Positions 363 through 50,688 of a DNA stretch of 64,000 nt are shown one piece after another; within the stretch, counting starts at the first letter, position 1, and the number at the start of each line of letters is the position of its first letter. The notes beneath the pieces are model-generated. The model saw nothing but the letters and a program-made list of their open reading frames with translations, was not told the origin of the DNA and did not search any database. The stretch lies in assembly GCA_963848815.1 (NCBI GenBank), contig CAWKFY010000020.1, forward strand, positions 74,760 through 138,759. The letters are read 5' to 3'. Source of the DNA: an uncultured Chloroflexia bacterium (GTDB lineage Bacteria > Chloroflexota > Dehalococcoidia > GIF9 > UBA5629). The position numbers and the translations under genes are program-made.

Positions 363-776
363 TCAGGCGCCCGCTGTTGGCGGGCCGTCTTTATGCCGCA
401 TAACCTCTTTTACCTTTCGTATCAGTTCCGAAGGCAAAACAGGCTTGGAAATAAAGTTCTTTTCGCCATTTCTTAAGAACTCCTGGATAGCCGGGCTGCG
501 CGTGTCTCCTGTGGTAAGTATCACCCTCTCCAGCATTTCCGGGTGGTCCTGTTCAAGGTAATGATAGAAGTCTATGCCGTTCATGCCCGGCATCTTGATA
601 TCTGACAGGCAGACTTGATAGTCGGTCTCATTGACTTTTTCCACGGCAACCATGCCGTTGGGAGCGAAGTCAACATCGAAACCCTCGCCCGACAGCACTT
701 CGATGAACAGCCTTCCGATGATGAGCTCATCTTCGATTACAAGCGCTTTTCCCTGGTAAACACCGCTCTTGTTCAT
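363..776 (-). CDS. single-domain response regulator (receiver)
   Basis: LVIEDE...SDIKMPGMNG...LTTG...FISKP receiver motifs. Confidence 0.9.
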   Translation of the reverse strand: MNKSGVYQGKALVIEDELIIGRLFIEVLSGEGFDVDFAPNGMVAVEKVNETDYQVCLSDIKMPGMNGIDFYHYLEQDHPEMLERVILTTGDTRSPAIQEFLRNGEKNFISKPVLPSELIRKVKEVMRHKDGPPTAGA

Positions 777-21230: not shown

Positions 21231-21276
21231 TGGTTGCAGCGACCGGGATTGGACCTGTGACCAGGGGCTTATGAGT
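21231..21276 (-). repeat. tRNA(CAT) 3'-half copy 11 (distal, diverged)
   Basis: tggttgcagcgaccgggattggacctgtgaccaggggcttatgagt aligns to tRNA 42923-42968. Confidence 0.85.
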
Positions 21277-21444
21277 TCCAATCTCCGCTTTTGTTATCGT
21301 TGCAGATTTTGTTAACGTGACACGTCCGGTAATCGCTGTGATATTAAGCTGTCATCGCTGTTCTTTATCTATAGCACGCAATTGTATATACATTGTGCAA
21401 GAGCGCCTTGCCGTGCCATATAATAGTGCGAAGGAGGGGAGAGA

Positions 21445-24741: not shown

Positions 24742-25104
24742 GTACTCGGTTGTTTTTCTTAGCTTTGACCTGTCGTGCTATTACTATCACGACAGGCCGT
24801 GATTATAGTTAAAATTGCTTCAGCAACCGGCGGCTCTATCGGGAAACGCCAAAAAGCGCTTTTGATTATATTCCCCTTGCCATATCCCCGGCAATATCTC
24901 TATGGCGCGTAAAGGCATCGGGCCCGTAATGACATTTAGTTTAACCTAGTCAAATATGGTAGCCTACGATTACATATGCAAAGGTTGCAAAAAATCCAAC
25001 GATCGACCACAGCCAGGCCCACCTCAAATACCTGAATGGCTCATTATAATGAACCGGTAGGGACTATTGCCGCTATAAAACCTGATGTATTATGCGGTAG
25101 CCCT

Positions 25105-26127
25105 ATGAAAATAACCCGTCGCCTTCACAAAGACCAGCAGGGCATGACAGGCCTGGAGACGGCCATTATCCTTATTGCTTTCGTAACTGTGGCGGCTGTA
25201 TTCGGCTACGCCATTCTGAGCGCAGGCCTCTTCTCGGCGGAGAGAGGCAAGGAAACCATCTATGCCGGACTCAACGAGGCCAAGAGCAACCTGGAGCTTT
25301 CCGGTTCGGTCATGGCCAAAAGCGATGACAGCGTCAATGTAAGGTCTATCCTCTTCACAGTCAAGAACGCCATCGCAGGCAACCCCATCGACATGACGCC
25401 CAATGACGGCAGCGGCCACAATAAATGCGTCATCAGCCTCAAGACCAATAACGACTATATCGACAACGTGAAATGGTCCTTCGTCCCCATCGGCGCCGAC
25501 AACGGCAACAACCTTCTGGAAACAGGCGAACAGTTCGAGATCACGGTTGACCTGACCGACCTCGGCTCTGCCGGGTCTCTCAGCGAGAACCTGACGGCCA
25601 ACCAAACATTCACCCTGCAGGTCAAACCGTCGCTGGGCTCCAGCATAACCATCCAGCGGACTTTGCCTCCCGCCATTGGTCCTGTGATGGACCTTGACCT
25701 TATGACCAGCTTTGGCGGCGGCCATTCAACGCAGGCCAGCGAGAATGCCAGCGGCGGTGGCGGGACGCCGGCTCTCACATGCACAGACGTACAGGCATTC
25801 TATATGAGCAACAATATAGCCAACCTTCACTTCTACTTACAGGATAACGGAACTGGTCCAGCTCATATCAGCCCGTCAGGTATTACCATTGCTGTCGATG
25901 GCGGTGGCGCTGTGGTCCCAAGCTGGTGGGTCAATTTCGAAAGCACAAATCCATTTGCAGTAGGGGAAACCTGTCACATAGGAATCGATTTGACATCTGC
26001 ACCGGTTGTGACCCTGCTGCTCGGCGACACGTTTACAGTGACCGTAACACCGGATGGCGGGCCTACACTCACCATAACCAGGACGTTACCGGGCGTGTTG
26101 AGTGCGGGCTACACCGATCTGCCCTAA
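25105..26127 (+). CDS. archaellin (archaeal-type flagellin)-like protein with duplicated globular domain
   Basis: class III signal KDQQG|MTGLETAIILIAFVTVAAVF; C-terminal FTLQVKP...ITIQRTLP motif present twice. Confidence 0.85.
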   Translation: MKITRRLHKDQQGMTGLETAIILIAFVTVAAVFGYAILSAGLFSAERGKETIYAGLNEAKSNLELSGSVMAKSDDSVNVRSILFTVKNAIAGNPIDMTPNDGSGHNKCVISLKTNNDYIDNVKWSFVPIGADNGNNLLETGEQFEITVDLTDLGSAGSLSENLTANQTFTLQVKPSLGSSITIQRTLPPAIGPVMDLDLMTSFGGGHSTQASENASGGGGTPALTCTDVQAFYMSNNIANLHFYLQDNGTGPAHISPSGITIAVDGGGAVVPSWWVNFESTNPFAVGETCHIGIDLTSAPVVTLLLGDTFTVTVTPDGGPTLTITRTLPGVLSAGYTDLP

Positions 26128-26252: not shown

Positions 26253-26293
26253 TGGTGGCAGCGACTGGATTCGAACTAGTGATCGGGGCTTAT
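26253..26293 (-). repeat. tRNA(CAT) 3'-half copy 10
   Basis: tggtggcagcgactggattcgaactagtgatcggggcttat. Confidence 0.92.
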
Positions 26294-26752
26294 TTCTACA
26301 ATTGTGTATTTGACTATACCACCTGGCGTGGGAATCTTAACCTTATCTTTGACTGCATGTCCCATAAGGGCTCTACCCACTGGTGAGTCATTCGAAATTT
26401 TACCATCCGCAGGATTAGATTCAACACGACCTACTATAGTAAACTGCTCAACTTTATTGTCTTGATCAAGAAGTGAAACTTTACTCCCAAAGCCCACCTT
26501 GCGAGAATCAGTTGCCTCACGCATAACCACGGCTTGATTTATCATCCCTTCGATGGTTAGTATCCTTCCCTCGATTTGTCCTTGCTCATTTTTGGCATAG
26601 TCATACTCGGCATTTTCAAGGATGCCGCCGTTCTCTCGTGACACACGCAAGTTCTCGATCACTTCGAGTCTGCGCACGTCACGTAAATGTTCTAGCTCCG
26701 CTTCAAGCTTCAGAATCCCTTCTTTAGTCATCAAAATTTGTTTTACTACCAT
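26276..26752 (-). CDS. greA: transcription elongation factor GreA
   Basis: ENAEYDYAKNEQ, ISNDSPVGRAL. Confidence 0.93.
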   Translation of the reverse strand: MVVKQILMTKEGILKLEAELEHLRDVRRLEVIENLRVSRENGGILENAEYDYAKNEQGQIEGRILTIEGMINQAVVMREATDSRKVGFGSKVSLLDQDNKVEQFTIVGRVESNPADGKISNDSPVGRALMGHAVKDKVKIPTPGGIVKYTIVEISPDH

Positions 26753-27029: not shown

Positions 27030-27075
27030 TGGTGGCAGCGACTGGATTCGAACTAGTGACCAGGAGCTTATGAGT
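27030..27075 (-). repeat. tRNA(CAT) 3'-half copy 9
   Basis: tggtggcagcgactggattcgaactagtgaccaggagcttatgagt. Confidence 0.93.
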
Positions 27076-27813: not shown

Positions 27814-27856
27814 TGGTGATAACGGCCGGGACTGAACCGGAGACCAGGGGCTTGTG
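27814..27856 (-). repeat. tRNA(CAT) 3'-half copy 8 (strongly diverged)
   Basis: tggtgataacggccgggactgaaccggagaccaggggcttgtg. Confidence 0.7.
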
Positions 27857-27885
27857 CATGACTGGATGTTTTAGGGAATAATCGG

Positions 27886-28350: not shown

Positions 28351-28534
28351 TTATTATTTAATTCTCAGTATAGAGTCAAAACCATGAGATTGCTTGATAG
28401 CCGGCTTATAAAAATCTGATATCAAACTTATATCTGCGTGATGGGCAAATAATTTCTAAATATTTAACAAGTTTTTTAAAGACTAATACATAGCCTATAA
28501 ATATCATCCGGCATTTATAGCTTTGAGCATACTA

Positions 28535-28570
28535 TTAGAAACCTTTAAGTTTGTCGGCATAGCATTCCGG
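28535..28570 (-). pseudogene. putative tyrosine-integrase N-terminal remnant
   Basis: ECYADKLKGF* matches ECYSDKLKGF at about 41.7 kb; lies just 3' of a tRNA fragment. Confidence 0.5.
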
Positions 28571-28615
28571 GGTTTGCTTCGCTATGCTCGTAATGACATG
28601 GTGAAATGAAAGGTT

Positions 28616-28645
28616 TAGTGACAGCGACTGAGATTGAACCAGTGA
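28616..28645 (-). repeat. tRNA(CAT) 3'-end copy 7 (truncated)
   Basis: tagtgacagcgactgagattgaaccagtga. Confidence 0.75.
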
Positions 28646-28738
28646 ATTTTCGCCGTAGATTTCATTTTTAACATTCGTTCCCGCAAGCCTTAACAGAAGT
28701 CGCCCTACTGTGAATGCGAATATAACCACATAAGATCG

Positions 28739-34144: not shown

Positions 34145-34740
34145 TCGATAATGATATCGAGAGAATTTAGTAAGGATAATGCCTCTGGCAAAGAAAAATG
34201 TGCCTGTTTAAGCGTATTATGCCTTGGATCAATTCCGTAATTAACAGCTCCTTTTAGATTTGCTTTTGTAAGATTGGTTCTAGCAAACACACTCCTCTCA
34301 AAATCTGTGCCCGTAAAACTTCCCTCACTTAGATCTGACTCGGTAAAATCTGTCTCTTTTGCCTCGCAGTTGATCATTTTCATTTTGGGCAATTTCAACA
34401 TTGCGAAATTGGAGTAGCTAATCTGACATTCTGTGAAATCAAGCCCATAAATCTGAGATGCTTTAGTCCAATCGATACCCATAACTTTGCATTTTGAGAA
34501 TTTTAAATCTGCGAATTGGCTATTCACTGGATTTATTGCACTTAATGTACATTCCTTGAAATGGCAATCAATGAACTTGCACTTCTCAAATTTGCAGTCT
34601 ATGAAGCTGCAACTATTAAACTCACATCCTTCAAATTCAACTGATTTGATGGTTTTATTTGACAACGAATAATTAACAAAGTTCTCGCTATCATAGCTAT
34701 CTCTGGCAAAACCGTTCATAGATTGCACTTGATCACTCAT
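34141..34740 (-). CDS. pentapeptide repeat protein
   Basis: F-x-x-C-x repeats throughout. Confidence 0.9.
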   Translation of the reverse strand: MSDQVQSMNGFARDSYDSENFVNYSLSNKTIKSVEFEGCEFNSCSFIDCKFEKCKFIDCHFKECTLSAINPVNSQFADLKFSKCKVMGIDWTKASQIYGLDFTECQISYSNFAMLKLPKMKMINCEAKETDFTESDLSEGSFTGTDFERSVFARTNLTKANLKGAVNYGIDPRHNTLKQAHFSLPEALSLLNSLDIIID

Positions 34741-34803
34741 TATTGCCTTCGACTTGATGGTTTTGACTAATCCCTTGTGATGTTGCGACGGAATTGAGAG
34801 GAT

Positions 34804-34845
34804 TGGTGGCAGCGGCCATGATTAAACTGGCGACCGGGGGCTTAT
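34804..34845 (-). repeat. tRNA(CAT) 3'-half copy 6 (diverged)
   Basis: tggtggcagcggccatgattaaactggcgaccgggggcttat. Confidence 0.8.
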
Positions 34846-34925
34846 ACGCGCTTGTTAGGTTCTCTATTATTATTGCAAATCTCATTTTTATATGAAATGA
34901 CTATGCATACAATGATTACCATTGC

Positions 34926-35323: not shown

Positions 35324-35368
35324 TGGTGGCAGCGACTAGATTCGAACTAGTGACCAAGGGCTTATGAG
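35324..35368 (-). repeat. tRNA(CAT) 3'-half copy 5 (45/45 identical)
   Basis: exact match to 42923-42967. Confidence 0.98.
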
Positions 35369-35453
35369 CTTCCGTTCACTATATTTTTATTTGGATATAT
35401 TAGGAAGTATAATCAAACCCAACTGCTTGTACGCGGGCTTCCGGGAGCGACCA

Positions 35454-36290
35454 ATGACAACAGATAAGATCCACTTTACAAAAGAAAAAGAAACGATGCT
35501 CATGACCTTGAGCGGTCGAGCCATCCAGAGCCAATGGAAGAATCCCATCTTGCGCGATCCCTGGGCTGAAGAAGCGATGCGGCATATCGATTACGACATC
35601 GGCAAGCACTACAAGGGAGTGGGCTCGTGGAGCCTGTGGAGCGAGATCGGATGTACCATCATCGCCACGCGCGCCGCGACCTTTGATCTGCTCACGAACC
35701 GCTATCTGGCCGATCACCCGGATGCGACCGTGCTCCACGTGGGCTGCGGCATGGACAGCCGCGCCTTCCGTGTCAATCCGCCTGCCAGTGTCCAGTGGTT
35801 CGACGTGGATTACCCTGATGTGATCGACCTGCGCCGCCAACTGTTTCCCGAACGGGCCTCCTACCACCTGATAGGTGCATCGCTGGACGATTTACGCTGG
35901 TTGGACGAGGTCCCACGGGACCGGCCCGGGCTGCTTATCGCCGAGGGGGTGCTGCACTACCTGAGCGAAACGGAAGTGAAAGCGCTCCTCAATGCGGTGG
36001 TCGCTCACTTCCCCGGCGGTCAGATGATCTTCGATATCTGCAATCCGTGGATTGTGAAAAGAGCGGGCTCGAACGTCGGGGGCACGGGTGCAACCTACAA
36101 ATGGGGCCTCGATGATCCCCAGGACATCAAGCAGCTTGAGCCAAAGCTTGAGCTGATCAAGGAATTCAGACCAAGCGAACTGGTCGCGTTTTCCCGCTTC
36201 CCGTTGTGGTGGCGTGCCCTTTACCGACTGCAGGAGGTCATCCCCACGCTGCGCAGGATGGAACGCATGGTAGTCTATCGGTTTCAGTAA
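35454..36290 (+). CDS. class I SAM methyltransferase (TcmP/LCM-like)
   Basis: VLHVGCGMDSR, DVDYPDVI, IAEGVLHYL. Confidence 0.9.
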   Translation: MTTDKIHFTKEKETMLMTLSGRAIQSQWKNPILRDPWAEEAMRHIDYDIGKHYKGVGSWSLWSEIGCTIIATRAATFDLLTNRYLADHPDATVLHVGCGMDSRAFRVNPPASVQWFDVDYPDVIDLRRQLFPERASYHLIGASLDDLRWLDEVPRDRPGLLIAEGVLHYLSETEVKALLNAVVAHFPGGQMIFDICNPWIVKRAGSNVGGTGATYKWGLDDPQDIKQLEPKLELIKEFRPSELVAFSRFPLWWRALYRLQEVIPTLRRMERMVVYRFQ

Positions 36291-36303
36291 AGGCGTTGTT
36301 GAA

Positions 36304-37000
36304 ATGAGAACTACAAATAATGTTATAAAGAATCCCAAGGTACAGGTATGGCTCTGGCTTATTGTGTGCTTTGTCCTCATCGCATTCGCACTCTTTCTTT
36401 CGGCTGGGACGTTCAATTATTGGCAGGCATGGATCTATCTCGCCGTAGGCGCCCTATCCAGCGTTCCGCTCACGCTGTACATAACAAAAGACCCGATATT
36501 GCTCGAAAACAGGACGAAGGCCGGGCCTTCGGCGGAGCGGCGGCCCATCCAAAAGATCATCGTGCTTGTTCGCGGGGCTCCCGGCTATCGCAACGTTCAT
36601 CGTTCCCGGGCTCGATCACCGTTTCGGCTGGTCGAGCGTGCCGTCCTGGCTTTCCATTGTCGGCGACCTCTTAATTATCGTTGCAATGTGGATAGTCTAC
36701 CGCGTATTCAAAGAGAACTCTTTCGGCTCCGCCACGGTCGAGATCGGCAAGGATCAAAAGGTAATCTCCACCGGTCCCTACGCCATCGTGCGAAATCCGA
36801 TGTATTCTAGCGCGGCAGTGTACTTCATCGGCATGTCGCTCGCCCTTGGCTCTTATTGGGGACTTATCCCCGCCGTTCTTACGGTCCTTGGCCTTGTCTG
36901 GCGGCTCTTCGACGAGGAAAAGTTCCTTGCTCAAAATCTTCCTGGCTACAGGGAGTATTGCGCCAAAGTGCGTTGGCGTTTGATACCCGGCATTTTCTGA
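36304..37000 (+). CDS. isoprenylcysteine carboxyl methyltransferase family (frameshifted)
   Basis: VISTGPYAIVRNPMY, EEKFL, RLIPGIF. Confidence 0.85.
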
Positions 37001-37099
37001 CTTCGACATGGTGTCAGATTTGCCTTCAACCTTGCATGCCAACGGGAACTCGTTATACACTACCCTACGTAATGCTCTGGCTTGGAGTCAGGTAAAGGC

Positions 37100-37545
37100 T
37101 ATTTAAGTAGTGGCAGAACATTATGATAAGAAGGTGAAAAACGTGGACAGAAAAAGCATTTTGGAACAGGCACGGGAACGGTCGGATGTGATGCTCATAT
37201 TACTCGAGTTAGTTCTGAGCGTGGTATTCATTGTGGTGGGATATCTTACAGATAACAACTATTTCCGTGGAGTCGGTGTCGGATTAATAATTGCTTGGGT
37301 GACAAGTGCCATTGCCTATTTATACAAAAGGAAAATGGTAAAACCATGAGCAACGAAGAGCGTATGACATTCACTTCCCGGCCCAAACCTCTATTCCTCC
37401 ATTACCACCTTTGCCACTCCTTCCGAAGCTTCCTTTACCATTTCCATATCAAGACGTATTCAAGTGACTATTGACCAATCCCCTGTTCAATAACTGGTGC
37501 AATAAAAAGTTTGGTGGCAGCGACTAGATTCGAATTGGTGACCAA
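37100..37545 (+). repeat. duplicated segment, direct repeat of 41982-42415
   Basis: highly similar DNA including the small ORF, spacer and tRNA fragment; 37061-37091 also matches 41841-41871. Confidence 0.92.
37110..37349 (+). CDS. small two-TM protein, copy 1
   Basis: near-identical to 41992-42222. Confidence 0.6.
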   Translation: MAEHYDKKVKNVDRKSILEQARERSDVMLILLELVLSVVFIVVGYLTDNNYFRGVGVGLIIAWVTSAIAYLYKRKMVKP

Positions 37546-37552
37546 GATCTTA
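37512..37552 (-). repeat. tRNA(CAT) 3'-half copy 4
   Basis: tggtggcagcgactagattcgaattggtgaccaagatctta. Confidence 0.93.
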
Positions 37553-37561
37553 TTATTCGCA

Positions 37562-38128
37562 CTAAGGTAGCAGCTTAAATGTACGAATAAGACGGTCGAA
37601 ATCATTGTTAACCTGGTCCACCTTATCGAGTCCGGCATACACCCAGATGTCCCATGCTCTATCTTGATAGTCGAAGAATGCTATCTTTTCGAGTTGTGAG
37701 TGCAGATTAAGAGATGGAACATCCTCCGTGTAAAGCATTAATATCTCACAAGGTATGCCTGAAATATTGTCAGAGGAGCGCTCTATAAGTTCCCTGCCGG
37801 CAACGGAAAGCAGTCTATCAGCAGCCCCTCTTGCGTTGTGGTATTCAATTGGATAGTTATATATGGTACAACCCAACACTATCTCCGAGCCGTCTGACAG
37901 CTTGCCAATAAAGCGGACACCATTCACAGCCCTGGGATCAGAGTATGCATTATTCACGGTCATACTATAAGAATCAGGATATTGAAAAGAGTAATGGTCC
38001 GTTCCATTAAGCTGCTCAAAGGTTCTATAACTAGCAGTATTACAACCAAACAAGGTTATAAGATAGGCGAATACCATAGGTATGCACGTTATTGTTATGA
38101 AAAACTTCTTTCTTTTAACATCCAACAC
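37562..38128 (-). CDS. PsbP-like lipoprotein
   Basis: LFGC lipobox; YSFQYP...FDRLIRTFKLL. Confidence 0.65.
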   Translation of the reverse strand: MLDVKRKKFFITITCIPMVFAYLITLFGCNTASYRTFEQLNGTDHYSFQYPDSYSMTVNNAYSDPRAVNGVRFIGKLSDGSEIVLGCTIYNYPIEYHNARGAADRLLSVAGRELIERSSDNISGIPCEILMLYTEDVPSLNLHSQLEKIAFFDYQDRAWDIWVYAGLDKVDQVNNDFDRLIRTFKLLP

Positions 38129-38163
38129 TCCTCTATTTTATGATGCCTGAATGACAAAAGAAA

Positions 38164-38207
38164 GGTGGCAGCGACTAGATTCGAACTAGTGACCAAGGGC
38201 TTATGAG
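38164..38207 (-). repeat. tRNA(CAT) 3'-half copy 3 (44/44 identical)
   Basis: exact match to 42924-42967. Confidence 0.98.
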
Positions 38208-38326
38208 GGCCAAGTTCAGCTTTTGATATCGTTGCAGACTTCGTTTTACTACTTCTTTTCGCGATACTACGACTATATAAGAGGAAGGGACTATCGTCAA
38301 GACCAGATAGTATATTAACGCTACAC

Positions 38327-38932
38327 TTGACATATTTCGCAGTACAGTCCACTATGAAACAGAATATGACGTCGTCAGACTACATCAGTACTTTCTGTAG
38401 ACAGATTCGCTCGCGTTCAGAGGAACATCATAAAGCGATGGAACTACTGCAAACCGGAGGTGTGCCGTCACAAATGGTATCCATCCTACGTCAAGAACTT
38501 GACTCGATGATCAGAGTCATGTATTTATTATCTATCCCCGACCTTAAGTATCGCGCCGAATTGATGCACGCTTCAATTGAAGGCAAGAAATGGACACAAA
38601 AAGGCACCCGAAAAAGAATTACAGATAGAGATATGGTCGCATTTGCTAATAAACTGCAAGGCTGGGCTGAATCGGTATACCGATTTGGGTGCGATTTTAT
38701 TCACCTTTCGAATTTCCACGATTATCGAAACCGTGACCCTATGGAATCCATATCCCAAAATGAGAAGAAGTCCATACTTAAGCATATGCGCTACTATCAT
38801 GGCGGTCCTCTCTGTTCGAATCCGACATTCGCCGATTTGATTCCGTATTTACCACGGGTGTTCGAAAAAATATCATCGAATCTCGAATGTTATGTGAAAG
38901 ATCTTGAGCACGATAAGAGTTTATCTGAATAG
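38327..38932 (+). CDS. hypothetical helical protein, possibly DUF5677/HEPN-like
   Basis: ILRQELDSMIR...YRFGCDFIH pattern. Confidence 0.55.
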   Translation: MTYFAVQSTMKQNMTSSDYISTFCRQIRSRSEEHHKAMELLQTGGVPSQMVSILRQELDSMIRVMYLLSIPDLKYRAELMHASIEGKKWTQKGTRKRITDRDMVAFANKLQGWAESVYRFGCDFIHLSNFHDYRNRDPMESISQNEKKSILKHMRYYHGGPLCSNPTFADLIPYLPRVFEKISSNLECYVKDLEHDKSLSE

Positions 38933-39039
38933 CACTCAATCGTACCGTACGATTTACCCTCAACCTAACAGGATAGCAGGAAGCTATCAATGGCTTGCTT
39001 TATTGTAGTAACTTTTACTTTCGTGGACATTGAACCTCT

Positions 39040-39145: not shown

Positions 39146-39181
39146 TGGTGGCAGCGACTGGGATTGAACCAGTGACCAAGG
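39146..39181 (-). repeat. tRNA(CAT) 3'-end copy 2 (variant T-arm allele)
   Basis: tggtggcagcgactgggattgaaccagtgaccaagg. Confidence 0.9.
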
Positions 39182-41692: not shown

Positions 41693-41830
41693 TCAACACC
41701 AGTAGAAACCTTTCAACTTGTCAGAATAGCACTCTATTGTTTCATAGGGCTTGCCTTCCACTTCTCGTTTGAGTGCGTGAGAGGATAATCCTTTTATGGA
41801 GAAGGTCAATAGGTATGTGGATACACGTTT
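41693..41830 (-). pseudogene. putative tyrosine-integrase N-terminal remnant
   Basis: IPIDLL..DY.LT..VEGKPYETIECYSDKLKGFYW* resembles XerC/D-type core-binding domain starts. Confidence 0.55.
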
Positions 41831-41991
41831 AGTTGTATCATACCCTACGTAATGCTCTGGCTTGGGGTCAGTGGGGATATAGACATATATATTCTGGCAC
41901 TGGTTCATTCTAGCTATCGAAAAAGGTGAAGCCTCGATTAAGAGGTTGCCTAAATAAAGAACCCCGCCCTAAAGGACAGGGTATTTAAGTA

Positions 41992-42222
41992 GTGGCAGAA
42001 CATTATGATAAAGAGGTGAAAAACATGTGGAGAAAAAGCATTTTGAAGGTACGGTTGGATACGACGCTCATATTATTCGAGTTAGTTCTGAGCGTGGTAT
42101 TCATTGTGGTGGGGTATCTTATAGATAACAACTATATCCGTGGAGTCGGTGTCGGATTGATAATTGCTTGGGTGACAAGTGCCATAGCCTATTTATACAA
42201 AAAGAAAATGGTAAAACCATGA
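41992..42222 (+). CDS. small two-TM protein, copy 2
   Basis: paralog of 37110-37349. Confidence 0.6.
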   Translation: MAEHYDKEVKNMWRKSILKVRLDTTLILFELVLSVVFIVVGYLIDNNYIRGVGVGLIIAWVTSAIAYLYKKKMVKP

Positions 42223-42384
42223 GCAACGAAGAGCGTATGGCATGCACTTCCCAGCCCAAACCTCTATTCCTCCATTACCACCTTTGCCACGCCTTCCGAA
42301 GCTTCCTTTACCATTTCCTTATCAAGACGTATTCAAGTGACTATTGACCAATCCCCTGTTCAATGAATGGTGCAATAAAAATAA

Positions 42385-42421
42385 TGGTGGCAGCGACTAG
42401 ATTCGAATTGGTGACTTATGA
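42385..42421 (-). repeat. tRNA(CAT) 3'-half copy 1 (internal deletion)
   Basis: tggtggcagcgactagattcgaattggtgac-ttatga. Confidence 0.92.
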
Positions 42422-42454: not shown

Positions 42455-42667
42455 TTATTTGACCACAATATACTCGGCAAATGAATTCGACTTAGGGACT
42501 GACACTTTATCTTCGATTAGTCCCTTAACATGCAGCTCTATAGCTTCGTGCATATTCTTCTCAACTTCCTCACGGGTAGATCCAGTAGCTACGCAACCTG
42601 GCAGATCGGGTGAATATGATGAGTAATTATCGTTTATTTTCTCAATTACAATAAGAAAGCGGTGCAC
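42455..42667 (-). CDS. hicB: HicB antitoxin (short form)
   Basis: YSPDLPGCVATGSTREE...EAIELH. Confidence 0.92.
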   Translation of the reverse strand: MHRFLIVIEKINDNYSSYSPDLPGCVATGSTREEVEKNMHEAIELHVKGLIEDKVSVPKSNSFAEYIVVK

Positions 42668-42668
42668 C

Positions 42669-42860
42669 TTACCGTTCCTCCTTAAGCTCAGCTTGTTTCA
42701 AAATGCTATTCAATGTTCATGGTGCTAAATCATCATCCGGTTTACCTGCGATCGTAATACGTCCGGGTTTCGATTGATGCTTATATTGCCTATGACTTCC
42801 CTTTGTAACCAAATACCACCCGTGAGCTTCAATCAATTTAATAACATCCCGTACTTTCAT
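42669..42860 (-). CDS. hicA: HicA mRNase toxin (frameshifted near the 3' end)
   Basis: MKVRDVIKLIEAHGW..KGSHRQYKH..KPGRITIAG; TLNSILKQA in another frame. Confidence 0.88.
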
Positions 42861-42922
42861 CCCAACATCAATGATATTATTTTTGACTGCCATTTGGAAA
42901 TAAAAGATTTGATGAAAAGGAA

Positions 42923-42997
42923 TGGTGGCAGCGACTAGATTCGAACTAGTGACCAAGGGCTTATGAGTCCCCTGCTCTACCACTGAGCTACGCTGCC
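42923..42997 (-). tRNA. tRNA with CAT anticodon, most likely elongator tRNA-Met (Ile2 not excluded)
   Basis: GGCAGCG/CGCTGCC acceptor stem, D-arm GCTC/GAGC, loop CTCATAA, T-arm ACTAG-TTCGAAT-CTAGT, encoded CCA; G1-C72 pair argues against initiator. Confidence 0.97.
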
Positions 42998-43039: not shown

Positions 43040-43255
43040 TGGTATTTTCTATCCCCTCACCCTGCCCTCTCCCCAGGGAGAGGGCAGTTCATTTTCTCTA
43101 AGAGGGAACAGGTTCCCTCTTCAACGCCTTTTTCCCTTAATATCCTTTGATCGAGCTAAGGTAGCTTGACTTAATGCCAAAAGATTGCCACGTCGCCCCG
43201 ATTCTATCAGGGCTCCTCGCAGTGACCTGCAACACCACGTTTGGCTCTAAGGCCG

Positions 43256-43320
43256 TTGACATGCTAAAATTACTGCGGTAAAATATCATCCGGTTACAAT
43301 AGAAATGTGCATGTGCGCAT
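43256..43320 (+). promoter_or_regulatory. sigma70 promoter and putative ArsR operator
   Basis: TTGACA-N17-TAAAAT; imperfect palindrome ATGTGCATGTGCGCAT at 43305-43320. Confidence 0.65.
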
Positions 43321-43341
43321 AAATATCGAGGCGAACGTAAA

Positions 43342-43695
43342 ATGCGTGATCTTCTCAAAGTTTTCAAAGCCACAGCCGACGAAACGAGGCTGCGCATCCT
43401 TTATCTGTTAATGGAAAGGGAGGCCTGCGTGCTCGAAATCAAACAGGCCATGCGCATCAGCCAGACCCGCGCTTCCCGCAACCTGGGCATCCTGCACGAC
43501 GCCGGCCTGCTCAAGGCCCGCCGCGAAGGCCCCCTGGTTTTCTATTCGCTGGATAATAAGGAGATTAAAAAGACCTGCGCCGGCCTGGACGCCATGGTCA
43601 AGCAGGCTTTTGAGCAGGACCAGACCGCCCTGCTGCACCGCGAGCGCCTGAAGAGGCCCGTCGCCAGGGCGAATGACAAACTACCCGGCAGGTAA
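43342..43695 (+). CDS. ArsR/SmtB family transcriptional regulator
   Basis: FKATADETRLRIL...ACV...ISQTRASRNL. Confidence 0.92.
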   Translation: MRDLLKVFKATADETRLRILYLLMEREACVLEIKQAMRISQTRASRNLGILHDAGLLKARREGPLVFYSLDNKEIKKTCAGLDAMVKQAFEQDQTALLHRERLKRPVARANDKLPGR

Positions 43696-43784
43696 TTTAA
43701 AGATTTAGTATTGACAATTAAGCAGGTTGGTAGTTTAATTTACACGGCCTGTTTAAGGTCAAGTCAATACCTTAGCTTACTGAT

Positions 43785-44210
43785 ATGACAGACTTCGAAC
43801 CAAAGATCGTCGCGTTCCTATGCAACTGGTGTTCCTACCGTGGTGCAGATCTGGCAGGCACCTCCCGCATGAAATGCGCCGCCAATGTTCGCGCCATTCG
43901 CGTTATGTGCAGCGGACGCGTCGAACCGGCCTTCATACTACGAGCTTTCGAGCTCGGCGCTGACGGCGTGCTGGTGCTGGGCTGCCATCCCGGCGACTGC
44001 CACTATGCCGAGGGCAACTACAAGGCCCTGCGGCGCATGATGCTGCTTAAAAGGATGCTCAAACAGCTCGGCGTCGAAGAAGACAGGTTCCGCCTCGACT
44101 GGGTGTCCGCCTCCGAAGGCGACCGCTTCACCCATGTTGTCAACGATATGACCGAGAAAGTCAGGGCGCTCGGCCCTTACAGAGCCAAAGAGGAGTCCAA
44201 AGTTGGCTAA
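43785..44210 (+). CDS. mvhD: hydrogenase iron-sulfur subunit MvhD
   Basis: FLCNWCSY.GADLAG, VMCSGRV, GCHPGDCHY, WVSASEG. Confidence 0.95.
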   Translation: MTDFEPKIVAFLCNWCSYRGADLAGTSRMKCAANVRAIRVMCSGRVEPAFILRAFELGADGVLVLGCHPGDCHYAEGNYKALRRMMLLKRMLKQLGVEEDRFRLDWVSASEGDRFTHVVNDMTEKVRALGPYRAKEESKVG

Positions 44211-45168
44211 ACTCAAGGTCGCCCTCTACTGGGCCGCCTCCTGCGGCGGCTGCGAAATCGCCACCCTGGCCATCGGCGACAAAATCCTCAAGCTGGCCGA
44301 AGCCGCCGATATCGTCTTCTGGCCGGTCGCCATCGATACCAAATACGCCGACGTCGAGAAAATGGCCGATAACAGCATCGACGCCTGCCTTTTCAACGGC
44401 GCCATCCGCAACTCCGAGAACGAGCACATGGCCAAACTGCTGCGGCAGAAATCCAAGATCATGATCGCCTACGGCTCCTGCGCCTACGAAGGCTGCATAC
44501 CCGGCCTGGCCAATTTTTACAACCGCAAGATGATGGTGGATACCGCTTACATCGATACCGCCTCCACCGACAACGCAGATAAGGTCATCCCTCAGCCCAG
44601 GTCGAAAGTCCCCGAGGGCGAACTGGAACTGCCGGTACTTTGGGAGACGGTCAGGACCCTGGCCCAGACGGTGGACGTGGATTATTTCGTGCCGGGCTGC
44701 CCGCCGGAGGAAAGGACCACCTGGCTGGCGCTGGAAGCCCTGATCAGCGGCAAGCTGCCTCCCAAGGGCACGGTCATAGCCCACCCGGCCAACGCAGTCT
44801 GCAACGACTGCCCCCGCGTCAAACATGAGAAGAAGATCAAGGCCTTCCACAGGCCTTATGAGATTGTCCCGGAACCCGACAAATGCCTGCTCGAACAGGG
44901 ACTGCTGTGCTGCGGCGTGGCTACACGCGGCGGCTGCGGCGCCCCCTGCCCCCAGGCCAATATGCCCTGCACCGGCTGCTACGGCCCGGTCGAGGGCGTG
45001 CGCGACCAGGGCAGCCACATTTCCTGACGGCCTGGGCCTCGATCATCGACTCCAACGATCCGGATGAGATCAAGAAGATACTGGACGGCATCGTCGACCC
45101 CGCCGGCACATGCTACCGCTACAGCCTGCGCCGACTCCATGATCAACAGGGCAAGGATCAAGCCATGA
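44203..45168 (+). CDS. mvhG: group 3c NiFe hydrogenase small subunit (frameshifted)
   Basis: SCGGC, GSCA, PGCPP, CLLEQG, CTGCYGP. Confidence 0.9.
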
Positions 45169-46628
45169 AAAAGATAACCATCGACCCCATCACCAGGCTG
45201 GAAGGACACGGCAAGATAACCATCTTCCTCAATGACGACGGCAGCGTGGCCAACGTCTACCTGCAGATACCCGAGCTGCGCGGCTTCGAGAAGTTCTGCG
45301 AAGGCCGCCCGGTCGAGGATATGCCCCAGATCACCCAGCGCATCTGCGGCGTCTGCCCCGAAGCGCACCACATGGCCGCCACCAAGGCGCTGGACGATAT
45401 GTTCCATACCGAGCCGACCAGCACCGCCAAAAAGATACGCGAGCTGCTTTACAGCGCCTTTTATGTCACCGACCATACCACGCATTTTTATATCCTGGGC
45501 GGGCCCGATTTCATCATGGGCCCCGACGCCCCGGTCAGCGCAGCGCAACATACTGGGCGTCATCGCCAAGGTCGGCATGGACCTGGCAGGGCAGGTGCTC
45601 AATACGCGCAAGGAGAACCACTGGATCATCCAGGCCGTAGGCGGCAGGCAGATACACCCGGTCTTCGGCCTTCCCGGCGGCGTCAGCAAGCGCATCTCCG
45701 AGGAAGACAGGGCGAAGATCGAGGAGATCGCCAAACGGGACGTGGCATTCGCACAGCTATCGCTCAAGGTCTTCGGCGATATCGTGCTCAAGAACAAGGC
45801 CTACGTGGACATGATCGTCAGCGACGCCTTCACGCACCAGACCTACTACATGGGGCTGGTCGACGATAAGAATAAGGTCAATTTCTACGACGGCAAGGTC
45901 AGGGTGGTCGACCCCGCCGGCAAAGAGTTCGCCAAATACTCCCCGCGCGGAATACCTCGAGAACGTTGCCGAGCACGTCGAGCCCTGGAGCTACACCAAG
46001 TTCCCCTTCCTCAAGAAGGTGGGCTGGAAGGGCTTCGTGGACGGCAAGGACAGCGGCGTTTACCGCGCCACCCCGCTCTCCCGCCTCAACGCCGCCGACG
46101 GCATGGCCACCCCGCTGGCGCAGGCCGAATACGAGAAGATGTATTCCACGCTGGGCGGCAAGCCCGTACACCATACGCTGGCCACCCACTGGGCACGCCT
46201 GATCGAGCTGCTCTACGCCGCCGAAAGGCTGCTGGAGCTCAGCCAGGACAAGGAGATAACCGGTCCCAATATCAGAAATATACCCGCCAACAAGCCCACC
46301 GAGGGCGTGGGCATCGTGGAGGCCCCGCGCGGCACGCTGACCCACCACTACATGGCCGATGAGAAGGGCTGCATCAAGAAGTGCAACCTGATCGTGGGCA
46401 CCACCAATAACCAGGCTGCGCTATTTCATGTCGGTCAAGAAGGCGGCGCAGGCGCTGATCAAGCCGGGCAAGGATATCCCCGAATCCCTGCTGAACCAGA
46501 TAGAGATGGCCTGGCGGCCTTACGACCCCTGCATGTCCTGCTCGACGCACACGTTGCCCGGCACCATGCCGCTCGAGATCACGGTGGTGGACAGCGGCGG
46601 CAACATGGTCAAGAAACTGTCCCGCTGA
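45165..46628 (+). CDS. mvhA: group 3c NiFe hydrogenase large subunit (frameshifted)
   Basis: TRLEGH, RICGVC (L1), EAPRG, YDPCMSCSTH (L2). Confidence 0.9.
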
Positions 46629-46753
46629 CCTTTTTTAAAAAACTTTGTAACTGAATAGGTTTACTGTACACATCCGGCAACTATTTATGAACATATTTAA
46701 ATATGCTGCATAGCCTTATATGGAAAAAATAAAATAACCTGAAGGAGTTGTGT

Positions 46754-47790
46754 ATGCAGAACCGGGTAATTTCCAGGAAAGACCTGGCCGGCTTCGTCGA
46801 TGACCTGATCAAGACGAAGGCCGCCGGGGAGGTCATCGGCATCAAGGCAAAGGGCAATAAATTCAATTTCGGCCCGCTGAAAAGCGCCGCCGAACTGCGC
46901 CTTGATTATGACATCGCCCTGCTGCCGCCCAAGAAGTACTTCTTCCCGCAGATGGAAACGGTGTTGAAGTACGAGTTCGGCGCAACCCCAAAGTCGAGCC
47001 CGTGGTCGCTGAGAAGCCATGTGCCTGATCGGCGTCCATCCCTTCGATATCCGGGGCATCCTGCTGTTCGACGCCGTATACGGCGGGGCAACAACCCCGA
47101 CCCCAACTATTTCCTCAAGAGGAACAACATCGATCATCATCGGCGTGGACTGCCTCAACCCCAACCCCAAGTCGTTCGCCGCCAGCATGGGCACCGCCGT
47201 TACGGAAGAGGGCTTCGACCTGATGCTGACCGACCTCGGCGGCGAATATTTCGTTACGGTCGGCACCACCAAGGGCGACAACCTGATCAAGAAGGCCAAG
47301 ACCAAGGATGCGGCCGCCGCCGACCTGGAGAAACGCGATAAGGTGCGCAAGGATGCCCTGAAAAAATACCAGGTTTCGCTCAAAATGAAGACGGAGGAGA
47401 TACCGGCGCTGCTGGACGCCAACTGGGAAAGCAAGGTTTTCAAGGACAAGGCGGCCACCTGCTTCAGTTGCGGCTCCTGCGTGATGGTCTGCCCCACCTG
47501 CGTCTGCTTCGACGTGCAGGACGATCCGGCGCTCAACCTGAAGGGAGGCGAACGCTACCGCCGCTGGGACGCCTGCATGCTGACTGAGTTCGCCAGCCGT
47601 GGCCAGCGGTGAGAATTTCCGCGAGCACAAGGAGCAGAGGTTCCGCCACCGCATGTACCGCAAGGGCAAGTACCTGCTGGAAAGATATAAGTACCTGGGC
47701 TGCGTGGGCTGCGGCAGATGCGCCATCGCCTGCCTGGCGCAGATCGCCAGCCCGGCCGAAACCTACAACCTGCTCAAGGAGGCAAAGTAA
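46754..47790 (+). CDS. group 3b hydrogenase beta subunit (4Fe-4S; frameshifted)
   Basis: CFSCGSCVMVCPTCVC, RRWDAC, CVGCGRC. Confidence 0.88.
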
Positions 47791-48633
47791 ATGGTAATGC
47801 AGCTTACTGCCAAGCAGTCCATTCACCTGCCCCGTATAGCCGAGCTGATCCGCGTGGAGAAGCTGAGCGACAGGGAAAAAGTATTTGAGTTCAAGTTCGA
47901 CGACGGCAAAGAGCTGGGCCAGATGCCCGGCCAGTTCGTCGAGGTATCCATCTTCGGCGTGGGCGAAGCGCCCATCTCGGTAACCTCTTCACCCACCCAT
48001 AAGGGCTCCTTCGAGCTGGCCGTCAGGGCCACCGGCAGCGTGACCAACAAGCTGCACACGCTGGAAAAGGGCGCCAAGGTGGGCATCAGGGGGCCGTTCG
48101 GCAACGGCTTCCCGCTCGAGACGCTCAAGGGCAAGGACATCCTCTTCGTGGCCGGCGGCATCGGCCTCTTCCCGCTGCGCTCGCTGATCAACTACGTGCT
48201 GGATAACCGCAAGGACTTCGGCGAGGTCAACACGCTTTTCGGCTGCCGCTCCCCGCAGGAGAGGCTTTTCATCGGCCAGCTGGCGGAGTGGAACACCTGC
48301 AAGGACATGTGCTTCCTGGAGACCGTGGACAGGTGCTCCGACGATACCTGGAAGGGCAATGTCGGCGTCATCACCACGCTCTTCCCCAAGGTCTCGTTCG
48401 ACCCGGCCAAAACCTACGCCATCGTGGTCGGCCCGCCCATCATGTACCGCTTCGTCATCGCCGAGTGCCTCAAGAAAGGGCTGGCCGACGACCATATCAT
48501 CATGTCGCTGGAGCGCAGGATGAAATGCGGCGTGGGCAAGTGCGGCCACTGCCAGATCAACGGGCTGTACTGCTGCCAGGAGGGGCCCGTCTTCACTTAT
48601 GCGCAGGTCAAGTCATTAAAGGAGGCAGTATAA
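47791..48633 (+). CDS. group 3b hydrogenase gamma subunit (FAD/NAD(P), 2Fe-2S)
   Basis: PGQF, RGPFGNGF, AGGIG, MKCGVGKCGHC. Confidence 0.92.
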   Translation: MVMQLTAKQSIHLPRIAELIRVEKLSDREKVFEFKFDDGKELGQMPGQFVEVSIFGVGEAPISVTSSPTHKGSFELAVRATGSVTNKLHTLEKGAKVGIRGPFGNGFPLETLKGKDILFVAGGIGLFPLRSLINYVLDNRKDFGEVNTLFGCRSPQERLFIGQLAEWNTCKDMCFLETVDRCSDDTWKGNVGVITTLFPKVSFDPAKTYAIVVGPPIMYRFVIAECLKKGLADDHIIMSLERRMKCGVGKCGHCQINGLYCCQEGPVFTYAQVKSLKEAV

Positions 48634-49381
48634 ATGAAACCGAGAGTCGCTTTCTTCGATTTTACGGGCTGCGAAGGCTGCCAGCTTGAAGTGCTCAACT
48701 TCAACCTGGAGATCGTCGACCTGATCGGTGCGGTCGACATCGTCGAGTTCCGCGAGGCCAGCTCCGACCACTCCGACAATTACGACATCGCCTTCATCGA
48801 AGGCAGCATCACCACCGAGAAGGAGATCGAGCGGGTGCAGGGCATCCGCAAGAAGGCCAAGATACTGGTGGCCCTGGGCGCCTGCGCCTGCACCGGCCGG
48901 CGTCAACGCCCTCAAGAACTTCTATCCCATGGAAGAGAACCTCAAGCTGGTCTACGGCGAAACCGCCAAGTGCTATAAGACCATACCTGCCAGGCCGGTC
49001 CATGCGCGTCGTCCCGGTGGACTACTTCATCCACGGCTGCCCGCCCAATCAGGGGCGAGGTCATCAGCCTGGTCAAATGCCTGCTGACCGGCAAGAAATT
49101 CGAGCATTACCACGACCCGGTCTGCGTGGAATGCAAGCTGGACGAGAACATCTGCGTCTTCGAGACGCGGCGAGACCTGCCTCGGCCCGGTCACCCGGGG
49201 CGGCTGCAACGCCATCTGCGTCAACGGCGGGCACGCAACTGCTGGGGCTGCCGCGCGCTGGTGGACGAGCCCAACCTCAACGCCGAAAAAGAGCTGCTGG
49301 CCAGATACGGCCTGACCGTAGACGACATGCTCGAGCAAGTTCAGGATCTTCAACGGAACACTGGAGGTTGCAAAATCATGA
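48634..49381 (+). CDS. group 3b hydrogenase small (delta) subunit (frameshifted)
   Basis: TGCEGC, LGACA, HGCPP, CWGC. Confidence 0.88.
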
Positions 49382-50678
49382 CAACAAGAACGTAAATTTC
49401 ACAGGTCCATCACGTTGCCCGCATCGAAGGCCACGGCAATATAATCGTCAATGCCAAGGACGGCAAGATCGAAGAGGTCAAGTGGGAAGTCCCCGAGTCA
49501 CCGCGCTTCTTCGAGTCCATGCTGCGCGGCCTGCAGCTATTCCGACGTCAATTTCATCGCCCCGCGCATCTGCGGCATCTGCGCCGTGGCGCACGCCACC
49601 GCCTCCATCGAGGCCACCGAGGCGGCCTTCGGCGTCAAGCTGACCGAGCAGGCGAGCTCGCTGCGCGAGCTGCTTTTCGATGCCGAGACCGTCACCAGCC
49701 ATGTGCTGCACACCTATTTCCTGGTGGCGCCCGATTTCTTGGGCGTGGGCAGCGTCATACCGCTGGCCGCCACCCACACCGACGTGGTGCTGAGGGCGCT
49801 GCGCATGAAGAAATTCGCCAACGACTGGGCGGATATGCTCTGCGGCCGCAAGACGCACCCGCATCTCCAGGTGGCCGGCGGCTTCGTCAAATTGCCTGAG
49901 ATCGAGCAGCTCAAATGGCTCAAGGAAACCCTGGAAGGCCAGTATATGCAGGACCTCGAGGCCACCGTCGACCTCTTCAAGACTCTCAAGTTCCCCGAAT
50001 TTATCCGCGAGACCGAGTACATCGCGCTCTACCAGGCCGGACAAATATTCTTTCATCGGCGGCGCGATCGGCTCCACCGACTGCCAAGCCCATCCCCGAT
50101 CAACGATTACCTCAAGGTGACCAACGAGTTCTGCGTTCCCTGGTCCACCGCCAAGTTCACCAAGCACCTGCGGGATTCCTACCAGGTGGGCGCGCTGGCC
50201 CGCTTCAACGTCAACCACGACAAGCTGCACCCCAAGGCTAAAAAGGTCGCGCAGGCCTTCGGGCTCAAGGCCCCCTGCTACAACCCCTTCTTCATCAGCG
50301 TGGCTCAGCTCGTCGAGACCATGCATGCAGTCGAGAACAGCATCATGATACTGGACAAGCTGCTCACCAAGGGCATCAAGCAGGAGAAGCCCGAGGTCAA
50401 GGTCAAGGCCGGGCGCGGCGTGGGCGCCGTGGAAGCTCCGCGCGGCATCCTCTTCCACGACTACACCTTCGACGATGACGGCAAACTGCATCGCCGCCAA
50501 TATCATCATCCCCACCAACGAGAACCACAACAGCATCCAGCACGATTTCGAGAAGCTGCTGCCCGAGATCATCGACCAGCCGCAGGACAAGATCAAGCTG
50601 ACCATGGAGATGCTGGTCAGGGCCTACGACCCCTGCGTCTCCTGCTCGACCCACATGCTGGAAGTGAAGTTTAAATAG
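49378..50678 (+). CDS. group 3b hydrogenase large (alpha) subunit (frameshifted)
   Basis: ARIEGH, RICGIC, EAPRG, YDPCVSCSTH. Confidence 0.9.
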
Positions 50679-50688
50679 TAGAGCATAT

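Follow-up and report, generated by a model that had tools for sequence, protein, structure and literature searches.

Tandem arrays of integration scars at a transfer RNA (tRNA) gene are a known kind of structure, of which the tycheposon islands of Prochlorococcus and the ssrA islands of Dehalococcoides are examples. Here we describe an array at a tRNA-Met(CAT) gene in an uncultured Dehalococcoidia bacterium. It spans positions 21231-42997 (21.8 kb) of a stretch of 64,000 nucleotides (nt) that was analysed as a whole and is called the window below. In the passages of the sources drawn on in this study, tycheposon islands are described as tandem tRNA integrations with partial tRNAs, fragmented integrases and cargo; their targets include one of three tRNA-Met(CAT) genes, and newcomers displace older elements outward (Hackl et al., 10.1101/2020.12.28.424599). 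The ssrA islands are also tandem, and are bounded by direct repeats of the 3' end of a stable RNA (McMurdie et al. 2011, PMC3146451). Among the tyrosine integrases that target tRNA genes, one class acts at the anticodon loop (Williams 2002, as summarised in PMC8371274).

In the SSV-type 'suicidal' integrases, the attachment site of the element (attP) lies within the open reading frame (ORF) of the integrase gene (int), and integration splits the gene (Badel et al. 2020, PMC7253208; PMC8371274). The relevant passages of the review restrict self-disrupting integrases to Archaea and assign PF16795 to them (PMC8371274). A bacterial attP within an int coding sequence is described for the myxophage Mx8, where integration alters the gene (part of PMC6070905).

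We regard it as highly probable that the segment 21231-42997 is a tandem scar array produced by serial site-specific integration at one tRNA-Met(CAT) gene, and that the conserved right flanks of its tRNA copies (R arms) are start modules, presumably split from integrase genes. It also seems probable, though to a clearly lesser degree, that Dehalococcoidia possess a bacterial, Xer-like counterpart of the archaeal 'suicidal' integrases, which would lock elements on integration, int then decaying and arrays resulting. The element family behind the array appears to include a bacterial integrase variant that disconnects itself, and the window holds vestiges only. The window is part of contig 20 in a 46-contig assembly of 2.25 Mb; it was compared with metagenome-assembled genomes of Dehalococcoidia and Chloroflexota. 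G labels denote related genomes, L labels loci from these genomes and C labels contigs.

Partial tRNA copies and their junctions

ARAGORN detected a single tRNA in the window, the tRNA-Met(CAT) gene at 42923-42997 on the minus strand. This intact gene was also the sole call of the Rfam tRNA model (E ≤ 10) between 20500 and 43500, a search that served as negative control and returned no match to a partial tRNA. A repeat search found twelve sites including the intact gene, all in the same orientation, with position 1 (the CCA end) at 21231, 26253, 27030, 27814, 28616, 34804, 35324, 37512, 38163, 39146, 42385 and 42923. Eleven partial copies of the tRNA 3' half are thus present between 21231 and 42415 (Table 1). 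A 44-nt probe, with up to 3 mismatches allowed, hit 4 sites in the window and 0 in 100 shuffles. Read on the plus strand, the copy at 35324-35368 is identical to the tRNA at 45/45 positions from the CCA end through TTATGAG, an identity that spans the T arm, the variable loop, the 3' anticodon stem and the seven loop bases; C follows, in place of the T of the tRNA. The copy at 38164-38207 matches at 44/44 positions and continues with G, and the copies at 27030 and 21231 extend one base beyond the loop edge (T46) and then diverge. Past position 45, ungapped comparison with the tRNA 5' half gives the eleven window copies 5-11 matches in 30 positions (mean 8.1), roughly as many as expected by chance; thus, no copy contains the D arm or the 5' acceptor strand. 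A preliminary description, made from the sequence alone, had already reported the two perfect copies with their divergence at the next base, the two further copies ending near the loop, the absence of the 5' half, the twelve sites and the expectation of a single tRNA call, and all of these agree with our alignments and searches.

The same description placed the break of the full-length copies at the anticodon loop. We compared breakpoints in 37 partial copies, 11 from the window, one from contig C9 and 25 from six related genomes; five pairs are orthologous, hence non-independent. The direct repeat extends from the tRNA anticodon loop to the 3' end, with homology ending at position 45/46 in 15 of the 37 copies and at positions 42-50, these included, in 23. 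Other ends lie at position 55 (n = 2) and position 64 (n = 1), and three copies that score as ending earlier are too diverged for scoring. In the window, four of the eleven copies are clean to the loop edge (21231, 27030, 35324 and 38163) and three are diverged yet traceable into the loop (27814, 34804 and 37512). The break at the loop is therefore recurrent, with the qualification that only some of the copies show it cleanly.

All five genomes of the same genus carry the identical tRNA (100% over the sequence of the window gene) and adjoining partial copies at the same chromosomal locus, and the content of the array near the tRNA varies among them. Identity to the sister genomes is 86.5-88.4% over the backbone at 43178-50680 and 94.5-96.1% over the shared modules. 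The modules, being closer than the backbone, either postdate the divergence of the species or have been exchanged among them, which supports, indirectly, the earlier proposal that the perfect copies are recent. The flanks of the copies were compared between genomes by global alignment (150 nt on the left side and 50-200 nt on the right), in which unrelated sequence scores ~50-55%. The right flank is shared and the left is not between L005_4190 and L006_17447 (98% and 50%) and between window_35324 and L004_19353 (98% and 54%). The reverse was found for window_42385 and L005_1760 (left 100%, right 54%), and the copy at window_39146 shares its left flank with the intact G005 tRNA (88%; right 50%). 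From genome to genome, the two flanks of a copy are combined independently of each other.

Single-nucleotide polymorphisms (SNPs) delimit the crossover within the copies. In two pairs that have the right flank or its first bases in common (L005_4190/L006_17447 and window_38163/L002_8351), a SNP at position 20 differs along with the left flanks. Since the SNP tracks the left flank, the crossover is placed between positions 21 and 46, a range that fits the anticodon stem-loop; the loop as overlap region is not proven by the SNPs. At the level of sequence, the comparison shows the sharp break at the loop to be the 5' limit of identity between attP and the chromosomal site, attB, and we infer that strand exchange occurs in or next to the anticodon stem-loop.

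Some observations weigh against an exchange fixed at the loop. Nine of the 37 copies end at scattered positions 27-38 (27-36 by the scored homology), and four of the eleven window copies (26253, 28616, 39146 and 42385) stop short, at positions 30-38; such early ends are tentatively attributed to later deletions. In G041, the distal copy (L065, G041:C4:174615-174666, compared with L035:3055-3130) has the loop CTCATAG, with anticodon CAT, where the tRNA-Ala(GGC) has CTGGCAG, and the stems are identical on both sides. This mismatch is hard to reconcile with an overlap spanning the whole loop; it suggests either an exchange 3' of the anticodon (nt 36) or an element derived from a CAT-loop target.

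Public sequencing runs contained at most 0.13 of the sampled words and yielded contigs of 200-780 nt, the uncovered parts being uninformative. One contig joins 42224 to 42915, omitting the copy at 42385 and hicAB, and others join 42224 to 39140. These joints, three in all, are weak (sides of 29-62 nt, likeness threshold 90), and give weak hints of polymorphism at the borders of copies.

We propose that each element would have carried a Xer-like tyrosine integrase and an attP holding the 3' part of the tRNA, from the anticodon loop through the CCA end plus a few bases. Integration would rebuild the tRNA with the 3' half of the element and move the previous 3' half outward, so that each partial copy would be a junction: on the plus strand, the sequence to its left would be the integrase-proximal end of the older element and that to its right the distal end of the younger one. 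Later, in this genome, the integrase genes would have been deleted to short N-terminal remnants and four copies cut by deletions, the remainder being cargo modules of 0.5-6 kb.

Some features of the tRNA and its copies are recorded here for their own sake. A few compensatory variants (ACTGG/CCAGT) occur in the T stems of the copies, in numbers too small to test covariation; they suggest, as far as sequence goes, that some tRNA halves came from other tRNA alleles. In the intact tRNA, A31 and G39 are mismatched at the top of the anticodon stem and G27 pairs with U43, features that are conserved in other genera; the tRNA may be more like tRNA-Ile2 (lysidine) than elongator tRNA-Met. The genome has two additional CAT tRNAs, on contig C31. 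GC-rich palindromes lie just upstream of the tRNA (43053-43121), with a weak match to whalefall-1 (E = 0.37). A lone 46-nt copy of the tRNA half was found remote from the tRNA gene, on contig C9 of the same assembly (566-611, minus strand) and in G004 (C1:2120710-2120764), a complete genome where it is inverted and 0.69 Mb from the tRNA gene. Both lone copies have the same left flank and adjoin a flagellin-like gene cluster; they may represent a secondary site or an inversion relic.

Integrase genes and the start module

In G005, a tyrosine recombinase of 314 amino acids (aa) begins 114 nt after the CCA end of the tRNA and is co-directional with it (L005:10399-11340); it contains PF00589 (E = 2.9e-31) and a SAM-like N domain. 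A second intact integrase, 81% identical to this one, lies within the array of G001 (L006:10604-11551). G004 and G002 have integrase stubs alone beside the tRNA, and the window holds remnants only. The ATG of the remnant at 38917-39030 is 115 nt from the CCA end of the copy at 39146, matching the spacing in G005. The integrase is Xer-like but scores under every NCBIfam equivalog cut-off (XerA 169.9 against 220 bits, XerC 151.5 against 335, XerD 136.5 against 330), and its nearest solved structure is XerA 5hxy (E = 1.8e-28). It shares the fold class of XerC, XerD and XerA and lies outside those families. The integrases carry the canonical R..HxxR..Y residues, and no arm-binding domain was detectable. 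In five integrase proteins Pfam returned PF00589 and SAM-like domains only, and no PF16795 (Phage_integr_3). In the 22 ORFs of the two intact-element regions, Pfam found no primase, helicase or polymerase families; its matches there were an Mrr-like endonuclease, TPR, DUF4760 and RNase T/BRCT.

Different elements have a conserved R arm next to their canonical copies. In the sense of the tRNA it shows AAGGAG, a spacer of seven bases and an ATG, from which 12-13 codons (MKSATI...G) lead in frame into the copy; this frame across the attachment site (the cross-att frame) translates the CAT anticodon as His, giving THKPLVTSSNLVAAT. In the window, three of four canonical arms retain the 13-codon leader, and the ATG is retained only at 34804. 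A ribosome-binding site (RBS), ATG and 13 codons in frame with the anticodon codon were also found at L006_19181, at L008_13172, at two junctions in L010, in L037 and in L045. In other Dehalococcoidia, the cross-att frame continues into an integrase in L089 (full-length int, tRNA 80 nt upstream), in L114, whose tRNA is nearly identical to that of the window, and in L021, whose integrase has an internal deletion. In L117, of the Met clade, the RBS, ATG, 12 codons, tRNA half, a 30-aa linker and the integrase form a single ORF.

A sister integrase clade, 39% identical, targets tRNA-Ala(GGC). An RBS and ATG of the integrase's own are absent from 12/12 N-termini in this Ala clade. Where the tRNA lies 59-71 nt upstream, the int frame is open through the whole tRNA in 9/9 cases, without an in-frame start between them. 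The linker keeps its frame without stops in nine sequences that are 69-100% identical to L035, itself one of the nine, and its sole indel across these diverged sequences measures 9 nt. The Ala-clade copies begin at tRNA nt 30 or 32, and at the distal copies an in-frame ATG is found upstream in 3/3 elements, by 8 codons in L116, 5 in L129 and 2 in G041, and two of these starts have a strong RBS. In L124 the ORF is complete and uninterrupted from the start module through the tRNA half and linker into the integrase.

In relatives, attP lies inside the int ORF, as seen from the one continuous ORF in L124 and L117 and from the absence of an own start in 12/12 integrases of the Ala clade; this is not so in the subclade of the window (G005, G001). 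Because attP is within the ORF in these relatives, integration would remove the int start; from the ORF architecture we infer that the integrase is split from its start on integration in these elements. In the own-start design, a promoter-like TTGACC...RBS...ATG region lies ahead of int, and the distal start module of L117 can be aligned with it; one and the same module is thus placed either before or after the att core, and in the subclade of the window it is placed after.

These architectures suggest the following mechanism. The distal end of an element would be a promoter-like element with an RBS-ATG module reading across the att core, and in related elements the frame would run on through the tRNA half and linker into the integrase. 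In the free or tandem form, int would be translated from this far-end promoter, RBS and ATG, across attP (15 tRNA-dictated codons) and a linker of 25-35 aa. Insertion into tRNA-Met or tRNA-Ala would detach the enzyme from its translation start and the element would be locked in place, until a newcomer integrating next door re-armed the integrase of the resident. Long arrays of tRNA halves, int stubs and orphan cargo would be explained because a silent integrase decays, and the R arms of the window would be displaced 5' ends of int genes.

Several findings argue against such a split as a general rule. An own RBS and ATG precede 47/52 Met-clade int N-termini of the surveyed loci, which were seeded with an own-start query, so that the proportions of the two designs are biased. 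Both intact integrases of the genus of the window (G005 and G001) have their own RBS and ATG as well, and the cross-att frame of G005 closes 40 nt before the int RBS. The start module in the window is therefore vestigial, since the int of its subclade has its own start. L117 is a tandem junction, not a free circle, and a non-canonical internal start is possible in the Ala clade.

Two other interpretations were tried and rejected. An SSV-style split with the att core inside the int gene of the window's genus fails because the ATG follows the core at a distance of 114-115 nt and the cross-att frame is closed. The R arm as a decayed tRNA 5' half gave 4-12/30 matches among the copies breaking within the anticodon arm, about chance level, and this idea was abandoned because the R arm proved to be an RBS-ATG module. 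By eye, the arm resembles the acceptor strand at 5/7 positions when shifted by one base, and just 2 bp of dyad symmetry are shared between it and the anticodon stem.

Some further features of these loci are worth recording. To the left of the copy at 34804 (34714-34803), the tRNA-half frame continues ..NPLNSVATSQGISQNHQ.., which resembles the linker of the continuous-ORF integrases. Relatives have two QGI motifs there, ~14 aa apart, and these may equally be direct DNA repeats, i.e. arm-type binding sites. A palindromic repeat (..VIASEAKQS.. or ..RHCEARSAVAI..) is inserted in several P' arms (L114:480-520, where it is in frame, L062, L004, L013 and L001). Short C-terminal int pieces (~aa 250-314, or the last 16-23 codons) are very common in other genomes, frequently 50-100 nt after an intact tRNA or arrayed, with fixed 3' and variable 5' ends; they occur in L026 (8), L049 (6), L042 (2), L028, L031-L033, L036 and L056 and, within the genus of the window, at L006 12578-12622, 14644-14694 and 19305-19367. 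Of five independent cases beside a tRNA, four have the piece joined in frame to the reading frame of the tRNA half. These pieces might have arisen from deletions within a silenced gene, or might mark a repeat boundary of another kind.

Cargo modules and alternative explanations

The copies cut the array into 11 modules, and its GC content is 45-51% against 58-61% to the right of the tRNA. By Pfam, the cargo comprises a Na+/H+ exchanger, an archaeal-flagellin-domain protein, GreA, an AhpC-like protein, PKD, ABC-F and pentapeptide proteins, together with LCM and PEMT methyltransferases, a lipoprotein, an SPL-like radical SAM enzyme, a methyltransferase and hicAB. The proximal 0.5 kb listed in Table 1 has a second copy at 41832-42417, about 90-94% identical, the membrane protein measuring 76-79 aa in the two, and the same module is found in G005 and G001. 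The hicB/hicA pair (42455-42895) fills the 506-bp module adjoining the tRNA, and the start of hicA is ~28 nt from the CCA end. Proteins with the archaeal flagellin domain (PF01917) form a multi-copy family, with members at 25036-26127 in the array and on contigs C9, C43, C38 and C29 of the same genome. The greA gene at 26276-26752 is a third paralogue and forms a module of 747 bp; its identity to the genes on C19 and C31 is 46% and 31%, and its stop codon falls within the tRNA copy at 26253.

Table 1. Positions of the tRNA gene, its partial copies, integrase remnants, R arms and modules in the window (attL and attB, attachment sites).
Feature	Position	Strand	Basis or remark
Intact tRNA-Met(CAT), current attL/attB	42923-42997	-	ARAGORN; Rfam tRNA model 69.1 bits; CCA end at 42923
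Partial copy, outermost, diverged (36/46), loop edge + 1 nt, then canonical R arm	21231-21276	-	Orthologous to G004 L001_17400
Partial copy ending at position 30, overlaps end of greA paralogue	26253-26282	-	
Partial copy (43/46), loop edge + 1 nt, then degenerate R arm	27030-27075	-	
Strongly diverged copy, traceable to ~position 44	27814-27857	-	
Strongly diverged copy, traceable to ~position 33	28616-28648	-	
Diverged copy, traceable into loop, anticodon codon mutated to TAT	34804-34845	-	
Perfect copy (45/45), ends at 5' edge of anticodon loop	35324-35368	-	Junction and right flank also in G005 (L004_19353)
Copy with two T-stem changes, clean to position 35, traceable to 42	37512-37553	-	
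Perfect copy (44/44), ends at loop edge	38164-38207	-	
Copy with alternative base-paired T arm (ACTGG/CCAGT), ends before loop	39146-39183	-	
Copy ending at position 31, left border of hicAB module	42385-42415	-	
Integrase remnant, aa 1-38, 92% identical to G005/G001 integrases	38917-39030	-	tblastn
Integrase remnant, aa 12-43, 62% identical	41699-41794	-	tblastn
Possible integrase remnant, aa 30-48, 68% identical, weak match (E = 0.02)	28517-28573	-	tblastn
Canonical R arm, putative element distal end, 13-codon leader (T)KSATISKAELGP into copy, ATG -> ACG	38208-38257	-	
Canonical R arm, leader KSATITKAEIGT, ATG lost (ACA)	21277-21326	-	
Diverged R arm with ATG and 13-codon leader MRFAIIIENLTSA in frame with copy	34847-34900	-	
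Eleven cargo modules between copies, 474 to 6154 bp	21277-42922		Pfam scan of 49 ORFs, ORF list, paralogue check
Duplicated 0.5-kb proximal end: 79-aa membrane protein gene, conserved left flank and copy	37052-37546	+	Repeat search

The Pfam scan of the 49 ORFs between 15 and 50 kb of the window returned no complete integrase, so that nothing in the window is demonstrably active. This counts against an array of formerly autonomous elements, as does the small size of several modules: six of the eleven measure just 474-800 bp, with one small gene each and no integrase trace, and such modules may never have been autonomous, being cassettes rather than decayed elements. An integron-like platform can be imagined on this basis, in which non-autonomous single-gene cassettes with tRNA-half sites are shuffled in trans by one tRNA-proximal integrase. 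The single orientation of all copies would agree with it, and so would the conserved arms on both flanks, the independent assortment of these flanks, and a 0.86-kb module of L117 that ends in a start module and lies between the tRNA and an integrase-bearing element; 'cis-mobilizable' islands without integrases have also been discussed for Dehalococcoides, in part of the account of McMurdie et al. (PMC3146451). We nevertheless consider a cassette platform unlikely. Integrase remnants are present in two or three modules, at the position expected of autonomous elements, and many junctions lack the loop and are unable to act as sites. The integrase scores far under the cut-offs of the NCBIfam integron-integrase models (TIGR02249, 58.5 against 265 bits; NF011946, 31.6 against 435), and the repeats are tRNA halves, not attC. 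Moreover, there is no fixed platform, because the integrase is part of the newest element and the window lacks it.

The array could in principle have arisen without site-specific integration, from tandem tRNA duplications that decayed, or by homologous recombination or gene conversion among repeats. Conversion by the functional gene could maintain the perfect 44-45-nt repeats, and the duplication 37052-37546/41832-42417 shows that segmental duplication happens in the array. Uniform decay of duplicated tRNA genes is excluded, however, because identity is 100% on one side of the loop and at chance level on the other. The 5' half is found in no copy and a single tRNA is called, the same breakpoint position recurs in different genomes beside unrelated neighbours, and the element ends are conserved with integrases at a fixed distance from the copies. 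An origin by duplication or conversion thus seems very improbable to us. The preliminary description had read the copies as attachment-site junctions rather than decayed tRNA duplicates, and the integrases beside the tRNA in relatives, the independently assorting flanks and the recurrent breakpoint bear this out.

Comparison with known systems

As a record of serial integration the array is an ordinary one, documenting accessory-gene gain at a single tRNA hotspot in an uncultured wetland Dehalococcoidia bacterium with a ~2.2-Mb genome. Like the tycheposons, as described in the passages cited above, it has one-tRNA specificity, a tRNA-Met(CAT) target, outward displacement, partial tRNAs, int fragments and cargo. 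Unlike them, it resides in a Chloroflexota host, its modules are much smaller, and the replication module is absent by Pfam from the two intact elements (22 ORFs). With the Dehalococcoides ssrA islands, which occur in the same bacterial class, it shares a conserved motif beside the repeat and islands of which some are without integrases (parts of PMC3146451). Those islands use the T-loop of the transfer-messenger RNA, 20-bp repeats and a CcrB-like serine recombinase module (PMC3146451, same parts), whereas the array described here uses the tRNA anticodon loop, 45-bp repeats and a tyrosine recombinase.

The identity block from the anticodon loop to the tRNA 3' end, the restored tRNA and the int gene beside it resemble the anticodon-loop class of integrases, as far as the summary in PMC8371274 goes. 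The enzyme differs in being small and Xer-like, with no detectable arm-binding domain, and the element arm next to the loop has little dyad symmetry with the anticodon stem.

An integrase parted from its start would carry further implications. Open-access keyword searches returned no bacterial report of an integrase parted from its start by integration, and absence of such a report is unproven by them. If the proposed mechanism is true, it would be an independent bacterial version, with another recombinase family and two tRNA targets, and would point to a convergent origin of the design. It would also offer a simple mechanism for one-way integration and for the accumulation of cargo-only islands, and, with both placements of the start module relative to the att core coexisting, the evolution of the switch would become directly testable. 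The closest bacterial case, as far as described in the cited part of PMC6070905, is Mx8, whose int receives another 3' end on integration, its product remaining active but changed in specificity; here it is the 5' end, including the start, that would be displaced.

The archaeal SSV-type integrases, as portrayed in the passages cited, resemble the elements described here in more than one respect. In relatives of the window elements, attP is a ~45-bp 3' part of the tRNA inside the int ORF, and the int 5' end would be split off; int(N)-like pieces are found at the distal junction, and scars that do not excise build up in the chromosome. The differences are equally clear. The enzymes carry PF00589 and SAM-like domains rather than PF16795, and their hosts are bacteria; only an RBS, an ATG and 2-13 codons would be split off, which leaves the body of the enzyme whole, and a sister design with its own start coexists. 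Judged by their sequences, the continuous-ORF integrases would work like the SSV-type family and yet be no members of it.

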